DNA from: Eledone cirrhosa
Taxonomy: Eukaryota
Length of the DNA: 64,000 nucleotides
Direction of reading: 5' to 3'
Assembly: GCA_964016885.1 (NCBI GenBank)
Contig: OZ024744.1
Coordinates: 5,952,001 to 6,016,000 of the forward strand
Shown piece after piece: positions 4,638 to 31,790 of this stretch (within the stretch, counting starts at the first letter, position 1; every line of letters begins with the position of its first letter). A model generated the notes under the pieces. The model did not search any database. It was not told where the DNA came from and worked only from the letters and a program-made list of their open reading frames with translations. The position numbers were made by a program, and so were the translations under genes.

Positions 4638-4926
4638 TTTTTTATTGGCCACAAGGGCTGACATCAAGAAAAACGTTACAGACGGTACAGGACGGTACGA
4701 GATGGGTTTTGTGCGTGTAAAGATTTTTATTATTTATATAAAAAAGAAAAAAAAAACATAAAACATATATATATATAAACAATACAAATGAAAATTGAAA
4801 CAATGAAAAATTCCCCAATAGGGGGGAAACCTCCGAGGGTTACTCATGGCGAAAACCACACAAAAGACCACGGCCACCCTGACCACCAGGGCAAGTGCCC
4901 TCTCTCAATTTTTACCATTTCTCAAA

Positions 4927-7900
4927 CTACAGACGTATATTCAGAGTGGTTCCGTTTACTCGGACCATTCTCGCTACATTCACCCACCTTTCAACAAACT
5001 TGCTAGAAGGCAGCACTTGCCTCTCCACCCTGATTTTCCTCGTCAAGTGAAACTTGAAAAAGTTAATTAGGGATTCGCCAAAGAGGAAAGTGTCTGTCTT
5101 TAACCCTTTCAACCTTGTCCGCCACACAATCTCTTCGGCGAGACCATCTGCACAATGGACTCAGTCGACAACCGGATCAGTCCCACACGTGACAGCAACT
5201 GTTCGACATAGATCCACAAGTCAGCAATGCTCGGGCACTGAACGAGAGCGTGCACGACGGTTTCGTCGCTCTGCGCGCATCTCGGACAGGCTCGGCTGAC
5301 GGCACTTCCGTGCCTGTAGAGCTTATCTCTAACCGGCAGCGCTCCCCGGTAGCACGGCTAGGCCAGGGATTTTTGGAAGATATCCATAGGCCCTGGGCTG
5401 AAAGTTCTCCGGAAGAGAGCAAAAAGCTGATCTTCTTCGACGCCCAGGATCTCTCCGAGAAGGTCGTCGCTCTTCCCCTCCACTAGTCCTCTATAGAACG
5501 CCGAGGTGGATGTTCCACCGATACTGGTGCCCAGCTGGCAGAGGGCCATGAGCGCCTGGAGATATTCCAGTTTCCAAGCGCTATCCCTCGGTCTTTTCCT
5601 GTCCCAGGACTGCAGTTGGGTCAAGGAGACGAGCTGTGGGAAAACGTGCCTGGCGAACGGCGACCACACCTGTTCACCGTCAAGGAAGCACCGGAGATGT
5701 CGCAGCCTCAGCGCATGTTTGCGCATCATCAGCCATGGCATCCCCAGTCCTCCACGCAACGGGTGTTGACAGCAGATGGATGCTCTGACCATTGGAGCGC
5801 GTCCCTTCCACAAAAAGCGGAAGAGGAGGCGCTCCATTTTGGTGAGAGTTGGGCCGGGTTAAGGGACGACGGTGAGGCGGTAGCAGATGACGGATGCGAT
5901 GTACGCATTCGCCACTTCCGCCCGGCCTTTCAGGGACAGCTTCCTCTCGGCCCATTTCTGGGTGAGGGAGGCCACCCTGCTCGTCATCTCGTTCCAGTTT
6001 TTCTCCATCTGGAGGTCTCGTCCGAACCAGACCGCGAGCAATTTAACCGGTCCGTCCGTCCAACTCCCCACGACGCTGTCAGACGGCCTGTACTTGCCTC
6101 TCCTGGTGCCGAGCTGCAAGCCCACCGACTTTTCCTGGTTTATCTTTGCTCTTGTCACTGCTTCGTATTCCTTGCAAGCGGTGCCAAGCATCTGGACGTG
6201 TCTGGTGCTCGACACCACCACGGTGACGTCGTCGGCGTAAGCCGACTCGGATATCCCTTATCCTAGTTCGCGTGGGACGCCCCTCATCGCCCCCAGTTTG
6301 TGCAGTAACGGCTCGATAGCCAATACGTACAAGAGGGACGAGAGGGGGACAAGCCGGGTGGTCTGAGCGCATGATGCTGAACGGCTGCGACAGGTGACCG
6401 TTCACCCTCACAACTGAGCAGATGTCGCTGTACATCGCAGCGATCCAACCCCTGAAAGCGGACCCGAAACCGACCACCTCGAGGACCGCCGCCAGGTACC
6501 GATGGTCGACCTTATCGAATGCTTTGGATTGATCCAAGTTGATCAGGGTCCCACCCGTGCCAGATTCCTTAAACACCCTCTCTATGATGTATCGCATGAA
6601 GTGGAGGTTGTCGTGTATGGTTTGTCCGGAATGGCGCATATCTATGCCTCTCCCACCAGACCCTTGACGACAAGCACCGACCTCGTTGCTAACACCTTGG
6701 CCAAAATCTTGAACTCTGCGTTTAGCAGGGTTATGGGTCTGAAGTTATCAATAACATCCCCCTTTTTCGGGTCTTTTCTCAGCAGCGCCACTGCTCCCCG
6801 GCTCACAAAACTGGGCATGCTCCCGTTCTGCTGCCAGTTGTAGTAGACGACTGCTAAGAGATCACCGAACAAGTCTGGCATAAATGCATAAAGCTCGTAG
6901 GGCAGACCATCCAAACCTGGCGATTTACCCCTCGTGCAGCTAGCCATCGCTTCCCGTATTTCACCGGTTGTTATTGTCTTTTCGCAACACTGTGCTGCGG
7001 TCGTCGAGAGCAGAGGCAGTCCATCGAGGTATGCACTGAAGTCCATACCCGATCCGGCCCGCTGTTACTGCAAAGTGCTGCTGAAAAGCTTCCAACATCT
7101 GCTCGGGTTCAAGCAACACGCGCCCGTTTTGATCAGACAAAGACCGAATTGTGGCTTTGTTGCCACGTCGCGCCTCTGCCACCCGGGCCCATTGGACGGC
7201 TTTTGTCCCCTCGTGTTTCAGAGCACGCGCTCTAGCTCTGACAGCGGATCCTTCGTGTTTTGCGTTGAAGAATTGGTCGAGTGCCAATCCCGCCGCAAGC
7301 ACGTCGGTTGCGATGCCTGTCCTAAACGCCTCTTCTAGCTTTCTGACTAGCTCTCCCTCTACTCTATTTTCCTCTATCACTACTCCTTTGCTAAACCTAA
7401 TCGACTCTACTTTAATTGCCCTTTTCAGGGCGAACCACCACCTGTTGTTGACGACCGCTCCTGTCAACGCCCAATTAACTAATACGCTAATCCGGTCTCT
7501 GTAGGCTTTGTGCGCCGGGAAAGACGTGTTCAGCTTCCAGTAACCAGGCCCTTGTCTATGAAGTCTGTCTATGTCGATCTCACAGATCACAAATTTGTGG
7601 TCTGTGTAGTCGACTATTTTAAATTGTGGACAACTTATACTAGCCTTATCTAGTTCTCTGCAGAATACCCTATCTAGGTACGATCTGGATGACGCGATGC
7701 GGTTTGTCCATGTCCACATTGGCACATTCGGGTGATCCAGTCGATACCTGTCAGACAGTTCAAAACGTCTGAGCAGGTTGGTGAGGCTCTTGCACCCTCC
7801 TCCCCTATCCACTAGCCCCACACAATCCCAGCGTGCATCCAAGATACCGTTCCAGTCGCCCACTAACACTAAAGAGCGGGACGTTCCAAGAAAGATCTCT

Positions 7901-8310: not shown

Positions 8311-10412
8311 CACTTACCTTGATCGTCTGGTGAAGGGACCGTTGAATCGTCCCTTCGGCTGGTTGTCGGCTCTTCTGTGAGTATATCCGAATATACTCTC
8401 CGGTTGAGTGTCCCTCCTAGGTCTCTGAAATCACCAACTGCGTTGGGGAATTTCTTTTTGAAGTTTGCTTATTGTGTCTGTGATATTCTTACCACTCTTA
8501 TGTTCGTTGGTGTTTTGATTGGTGCTGGTATTATGTAGTCGTGCTGTGAAATGTCTGTGTGTTCAATTATGTAAGTCATTAGTTTCTTGTTGTGTGTATT
8601 TATTGCTGTGCATTTCTTTTGCTGGGGGTGGGGTGTGGTTTTGCTATTTTCTTGTCGTTTCTGGGTGTGTGTGTTTTGTTGTTGTGTTTGCGATGTTGGT
8701 GCTTGTGGTGGGGGTGTTGAAGGTGTTGTTGTTTACGGTGGGGCTGCCGCCGGTGGTGATGGTGGTGCTAGTGTGGGTGGTGATGGTGTTGGTGGTGTTG
8801 CTGATGTAAGTCTCTTTGCAGTAGCCTTCACCCTTTTTTCCTTTCTTCCCTCCCTTTTCGAAGGCGACGTTGCGCTTCTTCTGAGTGTGTGCCTTCTTGC
8901 GACCTTTTGCCCTCTCCCACCTCACACTCCATATCTGATTCTGTGAGGTCGGGGAGGGGTACCAGCTCCACTCTTTCACTTGTTGTTGTTGGTGATGTTT
9001 GCAGTGGAGTCTCTGTTGCAGCTGCATTTGGTATTACTGTTGTTGTTGTTAATACTTCCACTGCTGCTGCTGTTTTTGATTTCCGTGGCGTGGGTGTGGG
9101 TGCCACGGACCTATCGTTCCTGGTTGCCGCTTGTCCTGTTGCTGATAGCCGTGGAGCCGGTTTCGGAAGGAGGGGGGGGTTTCTCCTTTCTCAGGGTCTT
9201 CTCGTTGCAGAAGGCCCTGAGGTGAGTCTTCGATCCAGAGCGAAAGCATTTCGGGCGTTTACCCTCAACACTTATGGGCAGTTGAGTGCCGTTATCGAAG
9301 TCTATCACATCCGGGATAGCTTCGATGCACTCCTGGTTGGTTTGGATTAACATCTCAATGGAGGTGCCGACCCAATCTTCTCTTACTTTTTTCTGTACTT
9401 GCAGTACAGTTGTTTTGTCCTCGATTCCGACGAGGACAGACGCGGCCAGCCAAGAAGGGGCCATCCCTGGGGGGGGGGGGCGTGGGTCAGTTTGACCCTC
9501 ACAATTTTTTGCCCGCAGTAGGAGGACACCAACACCATTTCCTCGCTCCTTAGGGTCACTAAGGATTGAGCCTTTGCCTCCTGGGGTGTGACAAAAAGCA
9601 CGTCTACGGTGGCATATTTCTTGCCTCGGGTGATGTGCGTTTTCCGCTGCCACACAGACCCTAAGGCTTTTTTGTATTTGAGCCTCTGTGGCTCTTTCAA
9701 CCCTACGGGATTTTGTGCTTACTGTACGGTACGTGACCGTACAGTGCTGTTGGGTTTCAAAAAATGTTTCGGCTGCCTTGCAGATTGTTCGGTGTCCGGT
9801 TTTCGTCACCATCTTCTTCGCTTCATCTAATTCCTCATTTGTTATGAGGATGGTTTCCAGGTTCTTTGCGATACCTGCAAAGGAGATTGGTTTTTCTTTG
9901 CTTCTGTTGTTGTTGTTGTTGTCGTCAGAGCTGCTGTTACTTTTGTTGTTGCTGCAGGTACTACGACTACTGCCGTCGCCGCTGTTGCTGTGTTTGTTGT
10001 TGTTGTTGGTGCTGCTGCTGTTGTTGTTGCTGTTGCTGCTAATGCTGCTGTTGTTTATGCTGCTGCTGATGCTGTTGCGGCTGCTACTGTTGTTTTCATT
10101 GTCTCTGTTGCTGCTGTTGCTGCTGTTATTACGGCTGCTACTGCTATTATTCCTGACGTCAGACGAATGAAATGGGTTTTCATATTTCCCGCACACCTTT
10201 TTCGTCGTTGTCGTCGTCGTCGTGGAGAAATCTTGCACGCTTTGCACGTGATTTTTCTTTTCTGTCGTCGCTTGCGAAAGAGAAGGGAGGGAGAGAGACA
10301 CATTTAAAGAAGGGAGGGAGAGAGACAATCTTCTCTCTGCTGTAGTGACGATTGAGGAAGAAGAAGACGGAATGAGTGGGAGTGACCTATGAAAATTCTT
10401 TTTCGTAGCCAT
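8311..10412 (-). pseudogene. T2 ORF1 (gag-like), frameshifted
   Basis: ATG at 10412 (MATKKN..), then a Ser/Asn microsatellite-derived tract, KPISFAGIAK, RKTHITRGKKYATVDVLF and a degenerate knuckle CFRSGSKTHLRAFC. Confidence 0.85.
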
Positions 10413-10697: not shown

Positions 10698-10901
10698 GAA
10701 GGGAAGAAGACGCACGAGGTGGTAGAACGTCACGAAATTGCTCCCGTAAGTTTTTTGATTTTTAACATATTTAAATCAATTGTGAAAGAACAATTCTTAG
10801 CACAAATGTTGCATAAAGGCACCGAATGAGGTCCCATAAAGTTTCGGATCCATATTATATTGTTGTATCGCTCAAATATTCAATTTTGTATTATATATTT
10901 T

Positions 10902-13900
10902 GTATTCAAAAAAAGAAAATGGTTATAAATGGAACAAAACACCCTCTGTCTACACTATATAGAACAGCGGCAATTTCAATTTCACCAACACCAGAAACTT
11001 GATACACTACCTATCCCATCACACTAAATATAATGGCAACTTCACCAGCATCATAATAATAATTACTATTATTATTGTCTCAAATTTAAAAAAATGTTTA
11101 ATTCAAATTTTACGGGAATATGTCAACACAAAATATAATGAAAATATATATTAAACATACGAACACAAACTCATAGATACTATATCAGTAACCACAACAC
11201 CACCGCTGCCACCACCCCACCACATCCATCATCGCCGCCACCACTCATTCAATGCTACTGACACTATTCCCCTGTTAACTTGAGATAGAAAAGGGAAGGT
11301 GGCGGTAGCACTAGACAAGAGAGAGGCTAGCAAAAGATATAAATAGATTGACTTGGTGACCTTGCCACGGACAAACGTCTACATCAACAATTATGGGACT
11401 GCAGGCTCACCCCTTCCTCACCAACAATATAAAAAGCCCCGGCACCACCACCGACATAGCCAGCAGCAATAACAGCCAACTACAACAAAAAGTATATTAT
11501 ATTATTGTAATGCACTGGGTGATTGCTGGCCTTGTGCCTGGAGTGGAGACAATTATTAATAATTTCATTCTTAAGCCACGCAATGCTCACATTAAGGAAC
11601 CACTCATGATAATAACAATTAAAAAAAAACAACAAAAAGAAAACCGCGTGACCAAGAAATACCGGGATGGCGGCCGGCGGGGAATAGCCATGTCTCTAGG
11701 GGAGAACGACCCCTCTAGTCTTGGTTGACACTCGTTCTAGAAGTGGTAACACGAAATGATTACCCCTTGGCGGATAAGGATAAAACGCGACAAAATAAAG
11801 TAGATGTCTAATGATGAAATCTCATACCGGATCGGCCGTCACCCGGGTAAAAAAGGGCCGCGTCCCTCAGAGAGGAACCAGACTGGGGTCGAAAAATCAG
11901 CTAATGGTTCAAACCTTCCCATCACTTCGGAGTTGGAGACCTCCCATAACCGGAATACTCCTACTGTTGGCCCTCTATGCTCACCACCAAGAAATCCAAA
12001 GAAAAAGAGAGAAAAATGGTCAAGGGAAGATAATAAAGAAGTCCTTGAGGCTTTCTACACTGCCATGTACTACCCATCAAATACATCGAATACAGAACAG
12101 ACATATATCAACTGGAAAAAGAAACATCCCGAAAACAGAGGCTATATTGATAGTAACAAACTAGCCAATATACGAAGAAATATTGTAAGAAAAAAGTTAC
12201 TAACTGATATAGAAATTGATCAGATCAAGCTAGTAGCACAAAGTCAGCGAAGGGAAAATGAAGCATGTGTCAGTGAAAACGAAGTAAACTGTAACACTTC
12301 GAATCCCAGGGTTGGGGCGGAATCACTGGCAACAGAACAAATTAAAGAAAGGAGCGAAAAAGTGGAGGGAGTGCATGCTCAGGATGAAACTCCAAATGAA
12401 AATAATGAGATCGTAAATGATAAAGAAATGAATGAGAATGAACTTGCCAACTTGAAGGATGAAATTATGATCGAATGGATGAAAATGAAAGAATCTGACA
12501 TGGGGGAACGAGACACCCTCCCTAAGATCCAGAACTCCAAACAGAACCAAAAGATAATACACCAGACTAACATAATTCTCAAAAACATTATCATCACAAA
12601 CAAACTAAACATTACTGACTTAAATCATCTCTATTATGCATCGGCTAAAGTCACCACTCACTTATGTGGAGTGAAGATGAAAAAACAAAGGAATTCCCAC
12701 AAGAAATCTACTTGGCAAGATAACATCAATCGCCAAATAAACCTTCTCCGATCTGACATAGAAATTTTAACAAACTATAAAGTAGGTGAACATGTTAAAC
12801 AAACTAAACTTAGAAAATTGAAAAAAAAGTACAGTATAAGATCAACATGTGACATAGACATGCTGATAGAAACAATCAAGCAAAAAGTGTCGGCCAAAGC
12901 TGCTCGTATAAGGCGCTTTGAAAAACGATCTAGATTCTATAAGGACAATAATATGTTCAAAAACAACCAAAGAAACTTCTACAGAAAAATTGGTAAGTCA
13001 ACAATAACTGCTAAATCAATACCACCCTAGGAGGAAGTGCAAGAATTCTGGGAAAAGATCTGGGCCGAAGAAAAAGTTCATAACATACATGCCCCATGGA
13101 TAGACAGACAAATGAAAGAAACAGCTCACCTTGAAGAACAAACATGGGAAAATATAACAGTTGAACAGCTGCGCTTGGCTCTAAGAAAAACCAGCAAATG
13201 GAAATCCCCAGGAAAAGACAAAATACAAAACTTTTGGATAAATGCATTCACAGAGTCTCATGAGCTGTTAGCCCAACTTTACAATGAAATAGTTAAGGAG
13301 CCAGAAAAGATACCATCATGGCTAGTTAACGGCATTACATTCCTGCTACTGAAGAATGATGAGACAAACAATCCCAAAAATTACAGACCGATAACCTGCT
13401 TGACCACAATGTATAAAATTTTAACATCAGTCCTAACTGAATACACATATGACCACCTGATAACAAATGACCTATTTCCCATTGAGCAGAAAGGGTGTAA
13501 ACGAGGCTCATATGGCTGTAAGGATCAGCTTCTGGTTAACAAAATGATACTGGAAGATTGTCATAATAGACACAAAAATCTATCGATTGCTTGGATAGAT
13601 TATAAAAAAGCATTTGATAGTTTGCCACACAGTTGGATTGAAAAATGTTTAGAGATTTTCAAAATATCCCCCGTTGTCAGGAGGTTTTTGTCATTCAGTA
13701 TGAGGACATGGAGAACGACACTCCTTTTGAATAGTGAAACAAAATCACTGGAAGCTGGAGAAGTTAACATTAATTGTGGAATTTTTCAGGGTTACTCTTT
13801 ATCACCGCTTTTATTCTGCATCGCACTTATACCATTAAGTAAAATGCTCAATGAAACAAAACATGGATATAGAGTCTATGACAAAACCATTAATCACCTG

Positions 13901-15594
13901 TTCTACATGGATGACCTGAAACTATTTGCAAAAAATGATGAACAATTGCAAGGACTATTATCCACTGTGAAGCAGTTCAGTGATGACATTAAAATGGAGT
14001 TTGGACTGGATAAATTCGCCAAAGCAACGTTCACCAGGGGAAAGCTACTGAAGAGTTCAGACATTAATCTTGATCGGGAGAACGTGATAAGAGAGCTTGA
14101 TCAAGAACAAACTTACAAATATCTAGGTGTTTGTGAAGGAGACGGAATCAAGCACTCGACAATGAGGGAAAGGATAAGGAAGGAATGTTACCGCAGAGTC
14201 AGAGCAATCTTAAGAACGGAATTGAATGCAAGGAATAGGATCGATGCCATAAACACGCTTGCCATACCAGTAGTAACCTACAGTTACAATGTCATCAACT
14301 GGTCAAGCACAGAGATCCGTAGGCTCGATACAAAAATCCGAAAATTCTTAACCATGCACAGAATGCATCACCCTAAGGCAGACATAGATAGAATATATCT
14401 CCCTAGGAAAGAAGGAGGACGTGGGTTAATCCAGTTAGACATTGCGTTGAAAACTGCAACAATTGGATTATCCACATATCTAAGGGAATCACATGATTGG
14501 ATGATCAAACTCGTTTTGAAACACGAAAGCACCAAAAGATCATATTCCATTACAAAAGATGCACAAAGATACAGTAATGGACTACAAATTTCAGAAGTCC
14601 CATTTACTGCTGAAATGGAAAACACAGAAAAAGCAAAGCAGGTAAAAGTAACTGCAAAGAAAGAACTGCTACAGAAACTGGCTAAGAAATGGCAAGAAAA
14701 GCCTCTGTATGGAAAATACCCAGAGCGAGCTAACAATCCTGATGTTGACAAAACTTTAACCCATCAGTGGTTGGCATCCTCTGGACTGAAATCGGAGACT
14801 GAAGGACTGATTATATCCGCACAAGATTAGTGTCTGCCAACAAAAAATTACCAAGCCAACATAATAAAAAATGGGTGCAGCCCATTATGCCGTGTATGCA
14901 AAAAACAACCAGAGACCATTGACCATATAATTTCAATGTGCAGTCCTATAGCTCCAACCGAATACCTAAACAGGCATGACAGAGCTGCACAATACATACA
15001 TTGGATAATGTGTAAGCATTTTGACCTGCCCCATCAAAAGAATTGTTGGGAACATCAACCACCTCCCATACTTGAAAAAGATCACATCTCAATCTTGTGG
15101 AACTTTAGCATCCAAACAGACCGAAAATTAGATGCAAATAGACCTGATATAATATTGAAGGACTTTCAAAGGAGGGTATGCCTGCTAATTGATATGTCTG
15201 TTCCAATAGACAAGAATGTATCTATAAAAACATTTGAAAAATTGAGCAAGTATAAGGACCTGGAGATAGAAATTGGAAAAATGTGGAAATTGAGAACTAA
15301 AACAATACCAGTGGTTGTAGGCGCTCTGGGAATGATACCTAAGGGGTCTAACGACTACTTATCGCAAATCCCAGGAAACCCGCGTATAGGAGAAATACAA
15401 AAGATAGTATTAATGGGAACTGCCCATATACTAAGGAAGATCCTGTCAATATAAGTACATCACAAGTCTAAACACTAAAGATGCATGTGTGAATATGTAT
15501 GTTCTTTCTTGAACATGGCGGACCTTGTTGTCTCTTGAGGTCACTGGTTGTGACTTGGTGGTAACTCGTATAAACATAAAGCAAGATAAATGCA
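10902..15594 (+). mobile_element. R4/Dong-clade RLE non-LTR retrotransposon, family A (copy RA1). The 5' end may extend to about 10698.
   Basis: Single long ORF with RT and a C-terminal CCHC plus PD-(D/E)xK endonuclease. The 3' end runs into (AAT)9. Homologous to 26197-30940 from position 10902 on. Confidence 0.93.
11804..15454 (+). pseudogene. RA1 polyprotein (about 1216 codons in one frame, two premature TAG stops)
   Basis: ORF-track pieces 11804..13030, 13037..14830 and 14936..15454 share one frame. Motifs: KWSREDNKEVLEAFY, WKSPGKD, YRPITCL, DYKKAFDS, HLFYMDDLKLF, CRVC..ETIDHIISMC, RHD, RPDII..LIDMSVP, KLSKY. Confidence 0.93.
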
Positions 15595-15621
15595 AATAAT
15601 AATAATAATAATAATAATAAT
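15595..15621 (+). repeat. (AAT)9 shared by the RA1 3' end and the T3 3' end (tail-to-tail)
   Basis: Read directly. Confidence 0.95.
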
Positions 15622-15864
15622 GTTTTCTTTATTAACCACAAGGGTTCACATAAAGTAGACATTAAGGACAGTACAGGACAATACAGGACGGTACAAATGA
15701 GCATTTCTGCGTGTAAAAAAACAGAGGTTGAAATAAAATAACAAAGAAAAATTCCCCAATAGGGGGGAGACTTCCAAGGGACATTTGTGGAGAAAGCCCA
15801 TTAAAAGACCACAGTGGCCCTGACCACCAGGGCAAGTGCACTCTCCCAGTTTTCCACCTTTAAT

Positions 15865-18800
15865 TTACAGACACATACTCAGAGAAGGCCCATTCATTCG
15901 GGCCATACTTGCTTCTCTCACCCATCTTTCAACAAAATGCTGGGAAGAGAGCACTTCCCTCTCTACCCTGATTTTCCTTTTCAAATGAAATTTGAAAAAG
16001 TTAATCAGGGCATCACCGAAGAGGTAAGTGCTCGTCTTCAGCCCTTTCAAACGTGTCCACCATACTATCTCTTTCGCCATGGCCACCAGACAGATAAAAA
16101 CTGCCTGCCCTTCCAGGCTAAAGGAAGGGGGCGGGGCAATCCTCACGATGGACTCAGCTGATAGCTGGATCCGTCCTACACGTGACAGCAGGTGTTCGAC
16201 ATAAACCCACAAGTCAGCAATGCTCGGACACTGGACGAGTGCGTGCAGGACGGTTTCGTCGCCCTGCGCGCATCTCGGACATGCCCGGCTGACGGCACCT
16301 CCATGCCTGTAGAGTTTATCCCGAACTGGCAAAGCTCCTCGGTAGCACTGCCAGGCCAGGGATTTCTGGAAGTGGTCCATAGGCCCCGGCCCGAAAGTCC
16401 TTCCGAAGAGATTGGCTAGTTGATTTTCGTCGACGCCTAGAGTTTCTCCAAGTACGTCGTCGCTCTTCCCCTCCACTAATCCCCTATAGAACGCCAAGGT
16501 GGAGTTTCCACCGATCACATTGCCCGATTGGTCGAGGGCTGTGAGCGCCAGAAGACATTCCAGTCTCCAAGCGCTCCCTCTCGGTCTTCGCTTGACCCAG
16601 GACTGCAGCTCCGTCAAGGAGACGAGCTGGGGAAAAACGTGTCTTGCAAACGGCGACCACACCTGATCACCGTCGAGGAAGAGGTGGAGATGTCGTAGCC
16701 TGAGCGCGTGTCTGCGCATCATCAGCCACGGCATGCCCAGCCCTCCACGTAGCGGGTGTTGACAGCAGATGGACCGCCTGACCATCGGAGCGCGTCCCTT
16801 CCACAAGAAGCGAAAGAGCAAACGCTCCAGCGCAGTCAGGCGGGGCTTAGGACAAGGTACGACGGTCAGGCGGTAGTAGATGACGGATGCGATGTACGCA
16901 TTCGCCACCTCCGCTCGACCTTTCAGGGATAGCTTCCTCTCGGCCCATTTCTGGGTGAGAGAAGCCACCCTGCTCGTCACCTCGTCCCAGTTTTTGTCCG
17001 TCTGGAGGTCTGGACCGAACCAGACCCCTAGCAATTTAACCGGTTCGTCCGTCCAGCGCCCGACGACGCTGTTGGACGGCATGGACCTGCCTCTCCAGGT
17101 GCCGAGCTGCAGGCCCACTGACTGTTCTTGGTTGATCATTGCTCCTGTCACCGCTTCGTATTCTCTTAGTGTAGTGCCGATCGCCTCGATGTGTTTGGCG
17201 TTTGACACCACTACGGTGAGATCGTCGGTATATGCTGACACGGATCTTCCGCATCCTAGTTCGCGCGGGACCCCCCTCAACGTCTCCAGTTTGTGCAGTA
17301 ATGGCTCGAGAGTCAATACGTACAATAGGGACGAGAGGGGACATCCTTGGCGGACCGAGCGCATGATGTTGAACGGTTCCGAAAGGTGACCGTTCACTCT
17401 CACTACAGAGCAGATGTCGCTGTGCATGGCAGCGATCCAGCCTCTGAAGACTGGCCCAAAGCCAGCCGCCCTCAGGACTGCCGTTAGGTAACGATGGTCG
17501 ACCCTATCGAAGTCTTTCGACTGATCTAAATTGATCAAAGACCCACCCGTGCCAGGTTCCCTAGCTACCCTCTCTACGATGTATCGCATGAGGTGGAGGT
17601 TGTCGTGGATGGATCTGTCGGGAATGGCGCATGTCTGTGCCTCTTCCACCAGACCACCAACGACAAGCGCCAACCTCTTTGCTAGCACCTTGGCCAAAAT
17701 CTTGAACTCTGTGTTTAGCAGAGTTATGGGCCTAAAATTATCTATGTTATCCCCCTTGTTCGGATCCTTTCTCAGCAGCGCCACCGCTCCTCGGCTCACA
17801 GAGCTGGGAATTCTCCCATTCTGTTGCCAGTTGCAGTAGACGTCCGCCAAGAGGCCTCCGAACAAGTTTGGCATTTGTACGTAAAGTTCATAGGGCAGAC
17901 CATCCAAACCAGGCGATTTACCCCTTGTGCAACTAGTCATTGCATCCCGTACTTCAGCGGTTGTTATCGGCTTTTCGCAACACTCCGCCTCAGTGGCCGA
18001 AAGCCGCGGCAGTCCGTCGAGGTAGACACTAAAGTCCATCCCTCGATCCGGCCCGCCACTGCCCCCGAACAGTTGAGCGAAGTGTCGCTGAAAAGCTTCA
18101 CACATTTGCCCGGGATCGAGTAGCATGCGCCCGTCGTGGTCCACCAAAGACCGGATCGTGGCTTTGTTGCCACGACGCGCCTCCGCCACTCGGGCCCATT
18201 GAACGGCTTTCGTCCCCTCGTGTCTGAGAGCACGCACCCTAGCTCTGACAACGCAGCCTTCGTGCTTTGCATTGAAGAATTGGTCAAGGGCCAATTTCGC
18301 CGCAAGTACGTCGGTCGCGATGCCTTTGCTAAGCGCCTCATCTAATTTTCTAACTAATTCTCCCTCTGCTCTATTTTTCTCTATTGCTAAAGTCTTACTA
18401 AACCTAATGGACTCTATTCTAATTGCTCTTTTCAGAGCAAACCACCACTTGTTGTTGACGATGGCCCCCGTCAACGCCCGCTTAACTAGTTCGCTAATCC
18501 GGTCTCTGTAGGCCTTGCGCGCTGGTAAGGACGCGTTTAGCTTCCAGTAGCCGGGTCCTCGTCTATGATGCCTATCTAAGTCAAGCACACAGATCACGAA
18601 TTTGTGGTCCGTGTAGCTGACTATCTTGAATTGTGGACAGCCTATGCTAGACCTATCTATTTCCCTACAAAATACTCTATCTAGATATGATCTGGATGAA
18701 CCTATGCGATTAGTCCAAGTCCACATTGGTACATTCGGGAAATCCATTCGGTACCTGTCAGACAGTTCAAAACGTCTGAGCAGGTTGGTGAGACTCTTGC

Positions 18801-19284
18801 ACCCTTCTTCCCTATCCACTAATCCCACACAATCCCAGCGTGCATCTAAGATCCCGTTCCAGTCGCCCACTAACACTAAAGACCGGGACGTTCCAAGAAA
18901 GGTCTCCAGACGCCGGAAGAAATCAGGCCGCCCTGCTCCTGTCGGGGCATAGACGGCGACTAACCTGAAAGCTTGCCCGTCTCCGCTGGTCACGTCCAGC
19001 ACCACCAACTTACCTTCTGGGTCCAGGAAGATGGCCCGTATGGCAAGATCCAAACCTCTCCGAAAAAGCACAGCAACTCCTCCCCCCGATCCCGGACGGC
19101 TGGGAGATGCGTACACATCGTAGCCGCCGAAGATCGGTGCGAAAGCCTGTGCTTCGGAGATTCTGGTCTCGCTGATGGCCACTACATCTATGTTTAGTGA
19201 CCTGAGGTCGTTGAGCAGGTGGCCCTGCTTCCATGACGACCCCAAGCCACGCGCATTTATTGTGCCTATTCTGAGTGCGGTCAT
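15865..19284 (-). CDS. ORF2 polyprotein, 1139 aa: APE endonuclease, reverse transcriptase, C-terminal CxxC...H...C motif
   Basis: Motifs: TINARG, ISETR, VYAP, VGDWN, YLDR, TDHK; KSPGLDG, FRPITLLN, RQGCPLS, YTDD (YADD variant); CPRC..ETVLHALVQC. Confidence 0.93.
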   Translation of the reverse strand: MTALRIGTINARGLGSSWKQGHLLNDLRSLNIDVVAISETRISEAQAFAPIFGGYDVYASPSRPGSGGGVAVLFRRGLDLAIRAIFLDPEGKLVVLDVTSGDGQAFRLVAVYAPTGAGRPDFFRRLETFLGTSRSLVLVGDWNGILDARWDCVGLVDREEGCKSLTNLLRRFELSDRYRMDFPNVPMWTWTNRIGSSRSYLDRVFCREIDRSSIGCPQFKIVSYTDHKFVICVLDLDRHHRRGPGYWKLNASLPARKAYRDRISELVKRALTGAIVNNKWWFALKRAIRIESIRFSKTLAIEKNRAEGELVRKLDEALSKGIATDVLAAKLALDQFFNAKHEGCVVRARVRALRHEGTKAVQWARVAEARRGNKATIRSLVDHDGRMLLDPGQMCEAFQRHFAQLFGGSGGPDRGMDFSVYLDGLPRLSATEAECCEKPITTAEVRDAMTSCTRGKSPGLDGLPYELYVQMPNLFGGLLADVYCNWQQNGRIPSSVSRGAVALLRKDPNKGDNIDNFRPITLLNTEFKILAKVLAKRLALVVGGLVEEAQTCAIPDRSIHDNLHLMRYIVERVAREPGTGGSLINLDQSKDFDRVDHRYLTAVLRAAGFGPVFRGWIAAMHSDICSVVRVNGHLSEPFNIMRSVRQGCPLSSLLYVLTLEPLLHKLETLRGVPRELGCGRSVSAYTDDLTVVVSNAKHIEAIGTTLREYEAVTGAMINQEQSVGLQLGTWRGRSMPSNSVVGRWTDEPVKLLGVWFGPDLQTDKNWDEVTSRVASLTQKWAERKLSLKGRAEVANAYIASVIYYRLTVVPCPKPRLTALERLLFRFLWKGRAPMVRRSICCQHPLRGGLGMPWLMMRRHALRLRHLHLFLDGDQVWSPFARHVFPQLVSLTELQSWVKRRPRGSAWRLECLLALTALDQSGNVIGGNSTLAFYRGLVEGKSDDVLGETLGVDENQLANLFGRTFGPGPMDHFQKSLAWQCYRGALPVRDKLYRHGGAVSRACPRCAQGDETVLHALVQCPSIADLWVYVEHLLSRVGRIQLSAESIVRIAPPPSFSLEGQAVFICLVAMAKEIVWWTRLKGLKTSTYLFGDALINFFKFHLKRKIRVEREVLSSQHFVERWVREASMARMNGPSLSMCL

Positions 19285-19318
19285 GTTGAAAAGGAGTGGA
19301 AAAGATGGGAAAGACCAC

Positions 19319-21305
19319 TTACCTTACTTCTCGTAGGGGAAGGACGGCTTTTCCATCCTTTTCACTGCTTGTGGCCTCCTCAGGAAGGATGTCCTTATAA
19401 ATCCTCCTGGAGAGTGCTTGTCGGAAGTCTCCGATGTCTTTGGGGAATTTTTGTTTTAGTGTCATGTACGTTTTCTGTGTGATGCGAGTGATTTGTATGT
19501 GTGGAGGTGGTGTGAATTTTGGGGTTGTTGTGTAGTCTTTTTCTGTGATGCTGGTGTTGTGTTGGATGTAGTGTAATAATTGCTTGTTGTTCAAATTTAA
19601 TGCTGTGTAGTGTGTATCGTTTTGGTTGTTTTGTTTTGTTTGCGTTTGTTGTGGGTTTGTTTCTGTTTCGCATTTTGGTGACTTTTGTGGTGTAGGTGAT
19701 GGTGGTGTTGGAGTTAATGATGGTGATGGTGTTGGTGTTTGGGTTGATGGGGTTGGTGATGCTGGTGTGGATGGTGGCATATCTGTCCTAACTTTTTTGT
19801 TTCTTAGTTTATTTGTTTCCCTCTGTATTTTGTTTTTGGAGGGGGAAGGAAGAGAATTTTTTCTTTTTTGGTTTCTTTTTTTTTTTCCGGATATCGTTTC
19901 CCACTCCTCGTCATCACAATCTGTCTCCAGTTGTGATAGGCCGGGGAGTGGAAAATCCTCCACAGCCGTTAGTTTTGGTTGTGGTGTGGTGGATGGTGTA
20001 GGCGCTGGTGCTAGTTCTGAAGCGTTGGGTGGTGGTGGTGTTGGTTTTGCTGGTGGTGGTAGTGGTGTTGGTTTTGCTACTGTTGCTGGGGTTGTTGCTG
20101 TTATAGTTGCTTCTGTTGTTGCTGCTACAGTTGTTGCTGCCATCTCTACTACTGGTGGTGTTGATGGTTGTGTCACTGGGGTGGGTAGGAGAGGTGGCCT
20201 CAACCTTTTAGCCTGAGGGCAGAAAGCCCTTAGGTGGGTTCCTTCACCACAAACGACACACCTAGGTCTTCTGCCCTCGACAATTACCGTGAGGTGGCTG
20301 CCGTCAGTGAGGTCTATTACCTCTGGGATCTCCTCAATGCTTTTTTGGTCTGCTTGGATCAGGAGCTCCATCCCAGATCCGGACCAGTTTTCCTGCTTTT
20401 CTTTTGCTATTGTTATTATTTTCGTGTTGGCCTCGATGCCGGCGAGGACAGCCGCTATTAGCCAGGGAATTTCGATGGCCGGTGGAACGTGGGTCACCCT
20501 GATCTTTACGAGTCTCTGGCCACAATAGCTTGGGACGAGTGTGAAGTCGTCACTTTTTAATGGGGCCACGGAGTGTTCTCTAGCCTCCTCTGGTGTTTCA
20601 AAGAACACATCCACGGTTCCATACTTTTGCCCACGTCTGATGTGGGTTTTTCTTGCCCACACATGTCCCAAAGCTTTTTGGATTTGGGACTCGGATGCCC
20701 GTTCCACTCGGCGCGATTTTACATTTATTTTTCTATACGACACGGTGCATAGGCGCCGATGCTCCATTTTATTAGGTGGGGGGGGGGTGAGGCTTACCCT
20801 GTACCCATCTTTCTTTACCATTTGTTTGGCATTTTCTAAATCTTCTTGAGTTACGGTAAATGCTTCGAATTGTTTTGCTACTCTGGCGAAACTGAGGGGG
20901 GGGGTTTATAATGTCATTGTTGTTGTTGTTGCTATCGTTAATATTAATTTTAGTTTCAGTTGTGGTGGTGACGTCAGTCGTCTTTGGTGGGGAAGAGTCC
21001 ATTTTGATTGATTTCATTTCGACATCACGAGTTAATTTATTTTTTTCTTCTTTTGTTTCTGTTGTCGCGGTGGTGATGGTGGTGGTGGTTGTCGCGGTGG
21101 TGGTGGTGGTGGAGGCTTTAACACCTGCAGTCATTGGTAATGGCGGGAAATGAATGTCTGCCTGAGACAAATTTAAAATATTGCTACTGCTTATATTTTT
21201 TTTTGTGTTGGCAAACGTAGTAACATTTACAATGGTGGTGTCGGTGTGAGGTGTTATTTTGTGAGGAAGACTTTCAGCTGCTTCGTGCAGAGGTGAAGTA
21301 GCCAT
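19319..21305 (-). pseudogene. T3 ORF1 (gag-like, CCHC knuckle, Pro/Thr-rich region), split by one frameshift at a homopolymer near 20900
   Basis: ORFs 20772..21305 and 19319..20821. Shifting frame at the C-run restores SFARVAKQFEAFTVTQEDLENAKQMV, matching T2 SFAGIAKNLETILITNEELDEAKKMV. Knuckle CVVCGEGTHLRAFC. Confidence 0.85.
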
Positions 21306-21514
21306 TTTTTTTCAAAGAAATTTTTTGATAATAATAAAAGTTAAAATTTTGGGCACAAGGCCCCAATCTTTTTAGGTGTCCTTTTCGGAAAACAATGTAT
21401 GTGTGCTTATAAACAGTTAACAATAAAATTTTCCATAAATGGCAATTTTTAAACAAACGGAAATAACAAACCTTTGCGGAGCTCACGATAATACGATTTC
21501 CTACGTAGGTCGCC

Positions 21515-21659: not shown

Positions 21660-24600
21660 AAACAACAAAACCAAAGCAGCACAGCAACAACAGCAAAAAA
21701 TGAGAAAAACAAACAGAGAAAAACAAAAACAAAAAAAAACCCCCCAAAACGTAAAGAAAATAAGAATGAAGAGAGAAGCAGGCGGACGGACAGAGAAGAG
21801 GGGGGAAAAAGTAAAACTTAAAAAACAAAAACTAAGTCAGACATTCGAACACTACATTACAATGAAACTTATGCTTATTCATTTTTGGGGCCCTTTCTGC
21901 CTGTGTGTTTGTTTGTTTATGTGTGTTCGTATACAGCGTGGTGATAATGCCACACAAGGGCCAAGTGGAATGGCGGATCCACAGATGGCTATGTAACCAT
22001 ACATTCGCCAATCCTCGATAAGAGTGTTTAAATATCGAACATAAACAGTTCGAATAACGGTGAAATGGAGACTAGAACGTCATGTGACAGACTCTCACCC
22101 AACAGGTGCCCCCTGGCTCAGCAGCAGGAACCTGACTGTCAACCAAATACTGCTGATGTTGGAGGAAAGAGAAGAAGGAAAGGGGCCAGAACCAACTGGA
22201 CGAAAGAATTGAATAGAACTGTTATGCAATGTTACCTGAAAAGTAACCCCAAGGAGAGGGGCTACAGGAGATGGATGCATAATATCTGGAACGAGATTGG
22301 TTTATTTAAATTAGATGAACAAAAATTGGCCGGGCAGGCTCGGGTAATAAGAACTAATGGGTGGATAAGCGAGCTGGAACTGGAGGAACTGAGCAGAGAG
22401 AATGGCTTGGAGATGGCGGGTGTAGTATGCCAGACAAGCGAGCCAGTGGGAAATGAAGGTGAAGAGGTCCTGAGAACGGAGGAACCACCCGAAGCAGACA
22501 ATGATCTGAATACTGAGATAAATAATACCTGGAACAGAGATACGGCCACTGAGGAGATGAATGCTGACGGGCTAGGACAAGATTCGGTTGACATTCTAAA
22601 TTTAGTGGTAGATGAATTGAACAATGATAGTGGGAGACCTATGAACCTAAGATTTCTAGACAGGAAAAAGTTAAAAGAAACAACAGCTAAGGTAAACAAA
22701 GTCATCCCATACCTTGAGGCGAGGAGCCTTCACCAGTGCAACAATATCCTCAAAGCAACAGCAAATACGGTGAGGAAACTACTTGGTATAAAAGCGAGAG
22801 GAAACAACAGACAAGAAAGAGCAGAGCCATGGTGGAAGAAGCGACTGAGTGGGCAAATCGGGGAAATGAGAAATGACATAGGAAAGCTTGAGTCACTACT
22901 GAATGGGACACTAAAAAACATAGGCACTAAAAATAGACTGGAAATAAAATACAAAACTAGGAGGAAAAAGCTAAATATTATCATAGAGGAACTGAAGCAA
23001 CGCATTGTAGCAAAGAGTGCAAAAATCAGGCGATACGAGAACAGAGTCAGTCAGTATAAACAGAACCGCATGTTCGACAACAACCAGAAGATGCTGTTTG
23101 GACAGCTTGAGGGGAAAGAAAGAGGCAACGACTTGATCCCTGGGGCGGAGCAAACTAAAACATTCTGGAGAGGAATATGGGAGCAGGATGTTAGACATAA
23201 TGTCCAGGCAGGGTGGATTGAGACAGTACAGAGGGAGATCGGTGAGCAGGCACAACAACAGACTGATTTGAGTATCACAGTTGAAACTCTTAAGGGGCAG
23301 ACCAAAAAACTAACCAACTGGAAATCACCTGGCCCAGATGGTGTGCAGGGGTATTGGATTAAACATTTAACATCCCTCCACCCGACTGACGGCCATGTTC
23401 AATGACTGCTTGGTGTCGGGTGAGGTACCAGAGTGGTTGACAAAAGGTACCACAGTTCTGATAATGAAAGACCGAATCAAGGGTAATGATGTTACCAACT
23501 ATAGACCTATCACATGTCTGTCCGTAATGTGGAAACTGTTGACGAGCATTGTGTCTGAGGAAATCTACCATCACCTCCACACAAACAACTTGTTACCGGA
23601 CGAACAGAAAGGATGCCGAAAGAAGTCACGTGGTACAAAGGACCAGTTACTTATTGATAAGATGGTAATGGGGAATTGCAGAAGGAGACACACTGATCTT
23701 GCCATGGGATGTATAGACTACAGAAAGGCATTTGACATGGTGCCTCATTCTTGGATCACCAAAAGCCTAGAGATCTTCAGGGTGGCAGATAACATCAGAC
23801 AGTTGCTGGGCAGGAGTATGGGGTCCTGGGAGACAGAGTTGACATCAACTGGAGTATCCTTGGGAAGCGTGAAGATCAAGAGAGGTATCTTCCAGGGAGA
23901 TAGCCTGTCCCCTCTATTGTTTGTCCTTGCCCTGATGCCCTTGACCATCATGCTGCGAAAAGTGAGAGCAGGATACAAGTTGGGAAGGGGAGAGCTTACC
24001 ATCAATCACCTCCTCTTCATGGACGATCTTAAGCTCTTCGAGAAAAGTGAGAAGGAGTTGGATGTGCTTGTTGACACTGTCCGTATTTTCAGCAGTGATA
24101 TATGTATGCAGTTTGGTATTGGTAAATGTGGAGTCATTGTGATGAGGAGGGGTAAATTGAGCAGAAGCAACGGAATCCTGGTGAGATGATAAAGGAATTT
24201 GATACTGACGAATACAAGTATTTGCGTGTTCTGGAGGCTGATGACATCAAGAACAAAAAAATGAAGGAATTGATAAGATCTGAATACATTCGGAGAATAA
24301 GGAGCGTATTAAAGTCACATCTGAACAGTAGGAATGCCATAAGTGCAGTAAATTCCCGAGCTGTGTATATTATTAGGTACAGTGCGGGAATTCTGAGATG
24401 GAATGTTGCTGAACAAAAAGAAATGGATAGGAAGACTAAGAAGCTATTGACTATCTACAACATGTTCCACAAAAGGAGTGATGTCGATAGACTCTACTTA
24501 AGGAGAACTGAAGGTGGAAGAGGTCTTATCAGCATAGAGGACTGTGTTCAGATGGAGAAAAACAACCTACACAAATACGTGACTGATAGTAGGGAGCCAA

Positions 24601-25511
24601 TGCTCAGAATTGTACTGGAAAATAGACCAGGGGATATCCAAGGAGGAAATAACAACAAGGAGAAACAGCAACCTTCATGAAAACTCCCTTCATACTACCT
24701 TCTTTGAGAAAACTGAATTCATAAATCCACAGACATGGAACTGGTTGAAAAGAGGAGACCTTAAAAAGGCTATAGAAGGAATGTTAATGGCTGCGCAGGA
24801 GCAGGCCCTCAAAACGAAGTGGTTGAAACACCATATTTACAAGGAGGAGGCTAGCCCACTGTGCAGGATCTGTGGAGAGAGAGAGGAGACTGTGGCTCAC
24901 ATTGTATCCGAGTGTAAGCACCTAGCCCAGACTCACTATAAGGGCTGGAGAGATGATGTGATGGGCAGGGTGATCCACTGGCATCTATGCAAAGTAAACA
25001 ATTTACCACATTCTGAGAAGTGGTATGAGCATAAGCCAGAGTCGGTGATAGAAAACGATCACGTGAAGGTGCTATGGGATTTTAGGATACAGACGGACAA
25101 GAAACTGGAACACAATAGACCTGACCTGGTCGCTTTGGACAAGGGAAAAAGATCGTGTCTGATTGTGGATGTGGCCTGCCCATTTGACACGAGAGTGCAA
25201 GAGAAGGAGAGGGAGAAAATTAAACGATACCAGGACTTAAAGTGGGAGGTAAAAAGGATTTGGAACTGCCATGAGGTCAAAGTGGTCCCGATTGTCATAG
25301 GCGCACTAGGTACTATCTCAAAGAGTTTCCAAGGATGATTAAAGAAAATTGGCCCCTTCACGCTTTTTGGAACGCTTCAAAAGACATGCTTGCTGGGAAC
25401 AGCAAGAACCCTCCGATACGTCATGAATATCTGAGGCTGCAGGTAGTGGCTTGATATTCATTTCAACAAACTTTCCAGTTAACTAACATCAATGACTGAG
25501 ACTCAAAGAAC
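21660..25511 (+). mobile_element. R4/Dong-clade RLE element, family B (copy RB1), near full length, decayed
   Basis: A-rich 5' region, ORF from 22065, and a 3' end running into (AAT)15. Confidence 0.92.
22065..25434 (+). pseudogene. RB1 polyprotein (RT, CCHC, RLE) with frameshifts, deletions and a stop
   Basis: Fragments 22065..23405, 23395..24189, 24186..24680 and 24610..25338. Motifs: [73 protein letters not shown]. Confidence 0.92.

Positions 25512-25557
<46 letters not shown>
25512..25557 (+). repeat. (AAT)15
   Basis: Read directly. Confidence 0.95.
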
Positions 25558-26163
25558 GGTGTCCGAGTGTAAACACCTAGCCCAGACCCACTATAAGGGC
25601 TGGAGACACGATGTGATGGGCAGGGTGATCCACTGGCACCTGTGCAAAGTAAACAATCTACCACATTCTGAGAAATGGTATGAGCATAGGCCAGAGGCGG
25701 TGATGGAGAACAGTCAGGTGAAGGTGCTGTGGGATTTTAGGATACAGACGGACAAAAAACTGGAACACAATAGACCTGACCTGGTGGTTGTGGACAAAGA
25801 AAAAAGATCGTGCCTGATTGTGGATGTGGCCTGCCTGTTCGACACGAGAGTGCAAGAGAAGGAGAGGGAGAAAATTAACCGATACCAGGACCTAAAGTGG
25901 GAGGTGAAAAGGATTTGGAACTGCCATGAAGTCAAAGTGATCCCGATTGTCATAGGCGCACTGGGGACTATCTCCAAAGGTTTCCAGGGATGGTTAAAGA
26001 AAATCGGCCCCTTCACGCTTTTTGGAACGCTTCAAAAGGCATGCTTGCTTGGAACGGCAAGAACCCTCCGATACGTCCTGAATATCTGAAGCTGCAGGTG
26101 GTGGCTTGATATTCAATCCAACGGACTTTCCAGTTAACCAACATCAATGACTGAGATTCAAGG
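25558..26163 (+). mobile_element. 5'-truncated R4 family B copy (RB2): RLE domain plus 3' UTR only
   Basis: ORF 25559..26089 (RHD, RPDLV..VDVAC, KINRYQDL) is paralogous to the RB1 3' end. Flanked by AAT tracts. Confidence 0.92.
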
Positions 26164-26196
26164 AATAACAATAACAATAATAATAATAATAATAAT
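26164..26196 (+). repeat. (AAT)n tract with two AAC variants (11 units)
   Basis: Read directly. Confidence 0.9.
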
Positions 26197-30940: not shown

Positions 30941-30961
30941 AATAATAATAATAATAATAAT
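30941..30961 (+). repeat. (AAT)7
   Basis: Read directly. Confidence 0.95.
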
Positions 30962-31790
30962 GCTTTCTTTATTAACGACAAGGGTTTACATAAAGTAGAC
31001 ATTAAAGACAGTACAGGACAATACAGGACAATACATGGGCATTTCTGCGTGTAAAAAAAACAAAAAACAGGATGTAACAAAAAATAACTATGAAAAATTC
31101 CCCAATAGGGGGAGACTTCCGAGGGACATTTGTGGAGAAAGACCATTAAAAGGCCACAGTGACCCTGACCACCAGGGCAAGTGCCCTCTCCCAGTTTTCC
31201 ACCTATAATTTACAGACACATACTCAGAGTAGGCCCATTCACTCGGGCCATTCTTGCCTCTCTCACCCATCTTTCAACAAAAAGCTGGGAAGAGAGTACT
31301 TCCCCCTCTACCCTGATTTTCCTTTTCAAATGAAATTTGAAAAAGTTAATCAGGGCATCACCGAAGAGGTAAGTGCTCGTCTTCAGCCCTTTCAAACGTG
31401 TCCACCATATTATCTCTTTCGCCATGGCCACCAGACAGATAAAAACTGCCTGCCCTTCCGGGCTAAAGGAGGAGGGTGGGGCAATCCTCACGATGGACTC
31501 AGATGATAGCCGGATCCGTCCTACACGTGACAGCAGGTGTTCGACATAAACCCACAAGTCAGCAATACTCGGACACTGGACGAGTGCGTGCAGGATGGTT
31601 TCGTCGCCCTATGCGCATCTCGGACATGCCCGGCTGACGGCACCTCCATGCCTGTAGAGTTTATCCCGAACTGGCAAAGCTCCTCGGTAGCACTGCCAGG
31701 CCAGAGATTTCTGGAAGTTGTCCATAGCCCCTGGCCCGAAAGTTCTTCCGAAGAGATTGGTTAGTTGATTTTCGTCGACGCCTAGAGTTT
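30962..31790 (-). mobile_element. 5'-truncated Tx1 family 3 copy (T3b): ORF2 C-terminus plus 3' UTR
   Basis: Homologous to 15622-16446. ORF 31210..31557 matches the ORF2 C-terminus. Confidence 0.92.

Follow-up and report, generated by a model that had tools for sequence, protein, structure and literature searches.

The stretch of DNA analyzed here (the window: 64,000 nt of Eledone cirrhosa, assembly GCA_964016885.1, contig OZ024744.1, positions 5,952,001 to 6,016,000) carries on its minus strand a near-intact non-LTR (lacking long terminal repeats) retrotransposon of the L1/Tx1 type with two open reading frames (ORFs), designated T3. ORF1 of T3 ends within a perfect 5' splice donor, AAG/GTAAGTG (D1; the slash marks the exon–intron boundary). 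The position of the donor is conserved among related families independently of reading frame, and its variation is of the splice-site type; acceptor-like YAG sites lie at the ORF2 stop or in the 3' untranslated region (UTR) of the families scored, and one junction at the donor founded a family, here called X. Comparison of the sequences strongly supports RNA-level selection on the donor. We consider evenly balanced the proposal, the best of those weighed, that this lineage of long interspersed nuclear elements (LINEs) splices part of its RNA from the donor to an acceptor located where ORF2 ends or farther downstream, giving a copia-like mRNA for ORF1 only, with an acceptor that moves between families. 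With more reserve, we suggest that the lineage has a built-in copia-like switch with ORF2 as its optional intron; the same donor would also splice head-to-tail neighbors, making the largest family counted a spliced chimera.

Splice Donor at the End of ORF1

The ORF1 stop codon of T3 (TAA, 19321-19319) falls within the donor motif, and the donors of T3 and of family T2 lie exactly where an earlier note on this DNA had placed them (Table 1). D1 matched the donor pattern at 9 of 9 positions and was joint best among the 293 GT sites of T3, splice sites being ranked by a simple match count plus pyrimidine count. Whole-genome pattern counting gave 1088 copies of the exact T3 donor 18-mer.

Related families were sampled by DNA and degenerate-codon searches, and the region ahead of the ORF2 ATG was read. 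A donor was present 25-46 nt ahead of the ATG in all eight host families (T1-T8), whose endonuclease (EN) domains are 57-77% identical to that of T3. Its sequence was GTAAGT in T1, T2, T3, T6, and T8, GTAGGT in T4 and T5 (GTATGT in one T5 copy), and GTGAGT in T7. With seven families aligned, -2A, -1G, +1G, +2T, +5G, and +6T were invariant, +3 was A or G, +4 was variable, and the flanks had diverged; judged from this alignment, the variation at +3 and +4 follows the degeneracy of real 5' splice sites. The donor was kept in 24 of the 25 T2 copies printed (all GTAAGT; 30 fetched), in 25 of 27 T1 copies with the ORF2 start, in 25/25 T4 copies, and, with an intact -1G, in 8/9 T6 copies.

Four families (T3, T4, T6, and T7) have the donor in phase 2 and two (T1 and T2) have it in phase 1, and in family A, from another host, it follows the ORF1 stop; thus, no downstream reading frame is conserved, and the persistence of the donor across frames indicates that the constraint acts on RNA. 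The earlier note had argued for such a constraint from T2 and T3, and the eight host families together with family A, in their differing frames, bear it out. The ORF1 stops of T2 and T3 do lie in different frames, as had been noticed, and, by the family copies (G/GT AAG TGA in T2 vs. AG/G TAA in T3), the difference is a family-level one and not the result of decay. Family A, a 40%-identical family, had AAG/GTAAGT in 77/77 contexts (the loci overlap, and copies were counted more than once), 10 nt ahead of the ATG and with the ORF1 stop upstream of the donor.

When the 60 nt ahead of the ORF2 ATG were shuffled, the fraction of trials that reached the observed donor match was <1/20000 for T3, 0.00005 for T2, 0.0002 for T6, 0.00025 for T1, 0.0009 for family A, 0.0045 for T4, 0.010 for T7, and 0.068 for T5; these probabilities are not independent, the families being related. 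Among distant L1/Tx1 relatives (24-32% identity), none of the 41 with the start region present scored >7/9 for the donor (80 loci were returned; starts are approximate), and no relatives were found in the viral contigs searched. A second perfect AG/GTAAGT, at 19013 and 271 nt into ORF2, served as an internal control: it was confined to the T2/T3 lineage among the ten copies scored and demonstrates that perfect motifs arise in coding sequence too. A conserved AAG/GTGGGT about 57 nt ahead of the ORF2 stop was discarded, being accounted for by E-R-W-V codons. Perfect AG/GTAAGT motifs also occur in antisense in the 3' end of ORF2, at 16022 (+) and 31367 (+).

The contigs of family A are filed in a public bacterial metagenome-assembled genome (MAG; CAXXMW0100000xx; loci L295-L340 and L365-L462), and loci L463 and L335 belong to two other MAG records. 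These contigs consist of or contain LINE copies, arranged in the first MAG in head-to-tail arrays with units of 6.4-6.9 kb, and are most likely mis-binned DNA of an animal host. Locus L335 holds a distant L1/Tx1-like ORF2 (27% identity) between two U1 snRNA genes (2104-2267, 9029-9205), which suggests an element targeting U1 arrays.

Candidate Acceptors

The U-rich tract in the 3' UTR of T3 ends in TTTTTACACGCAG with the intron end at 15707, and the same sequence was found at 31045 in a 5'-truncated copy, T3b. Splicing from 19322 to 15707 would remove 3616 nt and would append to ORF1 the 20-aa extension RNAHLYRPVLSCTVLNVYFM, followed by a stop ahead of the AATAAA at 15633; the prediction of the earlier note is correct in all these particulars. 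The CAG at 15707 ranked 2/120 among the YAG sites downstream of the donor (copy L038), and the acceptor was intact in 7093 genomic copies; 15 T3 3' ends found in 20 copies comprised 13 with CAG, one with TAG, and one with the site lost. From sequence, we regard the exact 19322-15707 junction as a possible but rather doubtful T3 isoform.

A candidate ancestral acceptor is the CTG TAG at the ORF2 stop of six other host families. It ranked 1/97 in T4, 2/113 in T7, and 7/124 in T6; T5 was omitted from the ranking, as its locus held two 3' ends. Among the host families, only T3 does not have TAG where ORF2 stops, and only T3 has the CAG in the 3' UTR; the CAG may compensate for the missing TAG, for which the support is modest. 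In families A and B, a second donor after the ORF2 stop is followed in the 3' UTR by a TAG acceptor that is pyrimidine-rich (rank 3/119 and 1/118, respectively), and this intron-like unit was kept in every copy read (L300:7487-7736; L329 3' UTR; L463:5922-6128).

The conserved sequence at the spot equivalent to 15707 is TTTAC(A/T)CG. It is one of several motifs shared by the 3' UTRs of T1-T7, together with GGGGA, TGTAAAC, TGTCCC, and TGTGG ahead of AATAAA (about 15770-15628 in T3), and this sharing suggests a 3' recognition element.

Chimeric Family X

The exon end of T2 was followed by a base other than G in 2398 genomic hits and by G in 88 places only. All 30 X loci read (L465-L494, e.g., G000:C1:1064316-1067335) contained T2 ORF1, ending exactly at the T2 donor and joined to T3 just after a CAG located 45 nt upstream of the T3 donor; the parental positions in the window are 8318 (T2) and 19367 (T3). 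In the eight loci profiled, well-aligned blocks matched T2 at 89-98% upstream; starting at the T3 donor, they matched T3 at 93-98%, and within the 45-nt segment the identity to T3 was 82-89%. ORF2 of X groups with T3 in the tree, and one extra base restores the T3 frame. With the ORF1 of one family and the ORF2 of another, X is the most numerous family counted (~2400 copies).

The sole overlap at the join is AG, which is the pattern that splicing gives, and a doubled 45-nt homologous segment is not expected from a simple crossover. T2-then-T3 head-to-tail pairs are present in the genome (L090, L101). Splicing between tandem copies would fit such a junction, which would then be one sign of real use of the donor. 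By our estimate, a chance break would fall exactly at the donor in a few percent of cases, with viable breaks clustering near the ORF1 end.

Proposed Mechanism and Alternative Explanations

In the proposed mechanism, U1 would bind the donor at the end of ORF1, and in part of the RNA the donor would be spliced to the 3' end, yielding an ORF1-only mRNA; the unspliced RNA would serve as the template for ORF2 and as the transposition substrate. Splicing would raise the ORF1p:ORF2p ratio, and the spliced RNA would rarely be retrotransposed because no ORF2p would be made from it in cis. In T3, the splice would end at the 15707 CAG or else at a weaker AAG, at 15858, and the added C-terminal peptide would be incidental. 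A splicing off-switch of the host, the other function offered by the earlier note, is unlikely, since the element itself appears to have kept the donor across a long divergence. The donor is under selection and the 15707 acceptor is specific to T3; the view of ORF2 as a facultative intron survives only with an acceptor differing between families.

Several observations weigh against such splicing. At the position of the T3 CAG, T2 has TTTACACGCAC, which the earlier note had taken for a decayed CAG; CAG occurred there in 0/16 T2-type 3' ends (14 CAC, 2 AAC; of 20 fetched, two without a C-terminal hit and two ending in the tail of another family were left out), and T1, T4, T6, and T7 have no AG at this position either. 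The lack of the acceptor AG in T2, which that note had itself named beforehand as speaking against its idea, is therefore real for this position; by these comparisons, the 15707 acceptor with its 20-aa extension is T3-specific, and no acceptor position is kept from family to family. At the ORF2 stop, the TAG ranked just 15/95 in T2, 9/125 in T2b, and 14/124 in T1; its pyrimidines are partly coding, and the support for this acceptor is modest because an invariant Leu codon was also found in 8/66 conserved Leu columns. D1 is missing from family B, the sister of A, and in L463, a decayed A-type copy, donor position +1 is A. The X junction is a single event at a weak cryptic acceptor, and in the largest subfamily of X the donor that remains is the weakened form ACG/GTAAGT.

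Retroposed copies with ORF1 joined to the 3' tail, for which the earlier note had proposed a search, were absent as well. Whole-genome pattern counts gave 0/~1091 for T3, the search being blind to junctions whose next exon begins G-N-A: the exon end was followed by G in 1088 copies and by another base in three, all point mutants, and one further deviant at +3 was an inversion. There were none among 873 T4 copies (24 deviants read, none spliced), seven T1 deviants (the T1 total was not counted), 19 X deviants, and, for T2, 88 copies with G plus 32 other deviants. Of the 98 sites with a triplet other than CAG at the acceptor, 51 were inspected, among them every one of the 22 with AAG, and no junction to ORF1 was seen in any. 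According to the sections available of two reports, cis preference would make ORF1-only retrocopies rare (PMC5860796), and Tx1 proteins are likely to mobilize short interspersed nuclear elements (SINEs) in trans (PMC4494074); because of the latter, and despite the former, the absence of retrocopies weighs moderately against abundant splicing.

Several candidate splice products were rejected. Deviants L031-L033, L214, L344, L347, L508, L517, L528, and L537 proved to be point mutations, an inversion, or small deletions. Loci L585 and L590, in which an (ATT)n run is followed by sequence starting from the 15707 acceptor, were read as 5' truncations, in a number that chance would be expected to give. 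In the T1 copy of the window at 2189-3277 (-), an internal deletion has brought the middle of ORF1 up against ORF2 at about residue 228; this ORF1–ORF2 join, near 3095, is not a splice, since other T1 copies are intact there. Among sequence contigs of unknown kind from four runs, none of the five joints listed for run X4 lay at 19323, 15706, or 15858 (6 of 82 loose ends shown), and contigs cannot show absence. Contig depth in X4 was ~6-fold lower upstream of 15870 (5504 to 909), unlike run X1; contig depth does not reveal RNA levels, shared 3' UTRs or 3' bias are possible causes, and the drop was not used as evidence.

Some of these results would be explained if the site bound the U1 small nuclear ribonucleoprotein (snRNP) and remained mostly unspliced, blocking premature polyadenylation, stabilizing the RNA, or retaining it in the nucleus, with rare cryptic splicing; the major donors of retroviruses act likewise through U1. 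The donor is strongly conserved and the acceptor position is not, no processed copies were found in any family tested, and one rare cryptic event would account for family X. We nevertheless consider this explanation, the main alternative, rather unlikely: the donor is tied to the ORF1 stop in nine families, a placement that would not be required of a generic U1 site, complete donor–acceptor pairs are present in the 3' UTR of families A and B, and the loss of the ORF2-stop TAG in T3 coincides with a CAG in its 3' UTR.

It is improbable that the motif is non-spliceosomal, i.e., a signal for termination–reinitiation or for the ORF2 start, or an inherited stop-codon context, with X formed by template switching. 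The stop codon does supply part of GTAAGT, GTAGGT, or GTGAGT and lies inside the motif in phase-2 families, and perfect donors were found inside ORF2 too (0-2 of 52-57 windows of 60 nt score 8 or more); the motif is, however, kept in three frames, including family A with the stop ahead of it, its distance to the ATG ranges from 10 to 46 nt, and its variation matches the degeneracy of 5' splice sites. For X, a template switch at the 5-nt T2/T3 microhomology adjoining the junction, followed by a 5-nt deletion, is possible, but the intermediate predicted by this two-step route was not found (three hits, all T-to-C variants of T2). Less probable still is a mini-intron of ~52 nt from the donor to an AG in ORF2 codon 5 (19271), which would drop the ORF1 stop and produce an ORF1–ORF2 fusion protein. 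This AG ranks 3/120 in T3, and the fusion would be in frame in T3, T4, T5, and T7; it would be out of frame in T2 and T6, and family A, with its upstream stop and 10-nt spacer, could not form it at all. Such an RNA would encode reverse transcriptase (RT) in cis, yet the junction was seen in 0/~1091 T3 copies.

Anatomy of T3 and Its Surroundings

The window is part of a 3.0-Gb genome. Non-LTR retrotransposons, nested in (ATT)n repeats, form a cluster that takes up the first 32 kb of the window. As in the L1 group, T3 contains an N-terminal APE endonuclease, an RT, and a C-terminal zinc motif in ORF2, a separate upstream ORF1, a 3' poly(A) signal, and a simple-repeat tail. The closest solved structure to ORF2 is human L1 ORF2p (E 1.5e-51), with R2 at 1e-19; the RT motif of the window copy is YTDD. 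ORF1 gave no hit in a Pfam search, and its frame is split in the window copy by a frameshift near C-runs at 20905-20772. An Rfam scan of the T3 copy found no family.

A CCHC zinc knuckle in ORF1 is a feature of the Tx1 clade, and CX2CX4HX4C was found in the ORF1 translations of T3 and family A. Target preference is a further Tx1 trait: (ATT)n abutted 3/3 T3 5' ends reached and 15/15 3' ends found (20 copies fetched). T1-T3 carry (ATT)n tails, and T4, T6, and T7 carry (TATC)n tails. The anatomy fits membership of T3 in the Tx1 clade; the tree made had unnamed rows only, with no named Tx1 reference.

Table 1. Coordinates of the features of T3 and related copies in the window.
Feature	Position	Strand	Remarks
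T2 3' UTR candidate acceptors	4658..4929	-	TAG at ORF2 stop (4927); CAG 11 nt ahead of AATAAA (4658)
T2 donor AAG/GTAAGTG	8311..8320	-	Phase 1
T3, full-length L1/Tx1-type non-LTR retrotransposon	15596..21514	-	Inserted in (ATT)n
T3 tail (ATT)n	15596-15621	-	
T3 poly(A) signal AATAAA	15628..15633	-	
T3 U-rich tract and CAG acceptor candidate	15707..15770	-	Intron end 15707; T3/X lineage only
ORF2 stop region	15858..15870	-	CTG TAG in six other host families; T3: CTG TAA and weak AAG ending 15858
T3 ORF2, 1139 aa	15865..19284	-	APE endonuclease, RT, zf-RVT (PF03372, PF00078, PF13966)
Second perfect AG/GTAAGT, within ORF2 coding sequence	19010..19016	-	First intron base 19013; internal control
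Inter-ORF spacer	19285..19315	-	Pyrimidine-rich, directly 3' of donor; present in 7/7 aligned host families
T3 5' splice donor D1 AAG/GTAAGTG	19316..19325	-	First intron base 19322
T3 ORF1	19319..21305	-	CX2CX4HX4C knuckle, Pro/Thr-rich linker (translation)
45-nt T3 ORF1 end segment after CAG	19323..19367	-	T3-derived part of X begins exactly here
CAG acceptor candidate of 5'-truncated T3b copy	31045..31060	-	

Three further RT elements of the single-ORF type, with RT assigned by Pfam and a nuclease-like C-terminal PD..D motif, were found in (ATT)n clusters at 11804-15454, 22032-26089, and 27149-30468 (+); they presumably belong to the R4/Dong clade. A 5.6-kb block composed of an R4/Dong-like element and a T3-type 3' end occurs twice at 95% identity (10901-16445 and 26196-31790). 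From about 36000 to 64000, the window consists of ~28 kb of satellite DNA with ACC/ACA/AAC-type triplets, which produce long spurious frames of PT-, TN-, and HQ-repeats.

Comparison with Known Systems and Significance

A conserved donor of the copia type at the end of the structural ORF was found in this LINE lineage. According to the available parts of the reports, a conserved splice encoded by the element itself, in Arabidopsis EVD (shGAG, Ty1/Copia), is proposed as the means by which structural protein comes to exceed enzyme (PMC5580714), and barley BARE1 keeps separate RNA pools for translation and replication (PMC3735527). The likeness to copia gag splicing lies in the conserved element-encoded donor and in the proposed excess of structural protein. 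EVD and BARE are, however, LTR elements with one gag-pol ORF, whereas the present LINE is bicistronic and would be stripped of the whole of ORF2; the EVD intron, as far as the accessible text goes, removes the protease only, is coupled to premature termination, and was shown by RNA data (PMC5580714), whereas the arrangement described here is known from genomic sequence.

Human L1 belongs to the same L1 group, and cis preference applies to both (SpIREs, PMC5860796; SpORF2, PMC2896524). Its spliced RNAs exist and can retrotranspose, SpIRE97/622 constituting ~1.8% of full-length insertions, and the accessible sections describe SpIREs as evolutionary dead ends (PMC5860796). The human donors reported there lie in the 5' UTR, and their use removes the promoter or ORF1, not ORF2 (PMC5860796, PMC2896524); in the present lineage, by contrast, the donor lies at the ORF1 stop and is conserved from family to family, and no family counted has more copies than the splice-like X. 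The only SpIRE-like genomic join has the form of X, from the T2 donor to T3 after the CAG (one event, weak acceptor), and no ORF1-to-3' UTR junction was found. The Tx1 elements Kibi and Koshi resemble T3 in having two ORFs, an ORF2 with APE, RT, and zinc domains, insertion into microsatellites, and head-to-tail clusters (PMC4494074); the targets here are (ATT)n and (TATC)n, in contrast to theirs, and the available sections of their description mention no splice signal at the ORF boundary (PMC4494074). In a literature search covering mainly open-access text, no description of splicing at the ORF1 end was found for Tx1 or other LINEs.

SVA and LAVA are composite retrotransposons assembled partly by splicing. 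Like them, family X would be a new family born where neighboring sequences were spliced together; unlike these non-autonomous elements, it combines the ORF1 of one family with the ORF2 of another.

The requirement of LINEs for ORF1p far exceeds that for ORF2p, and by the accepted view it is satisfied by inefficient translation of ORF2 from one bicistronic RNA. The conservation of a donor where ORF1 stops suggests a second way of reaching such a ratio, by splicing, as has so far been shown for LTR elements. Family X suggests that splicing within tandem arrays can swap ORF1 modules between families and found a successful new family, in contrast to the spliced L1 copies of humans, which are described as dead ends. 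A strong donor present in thousands of copies would also affect the splicing of host genes.

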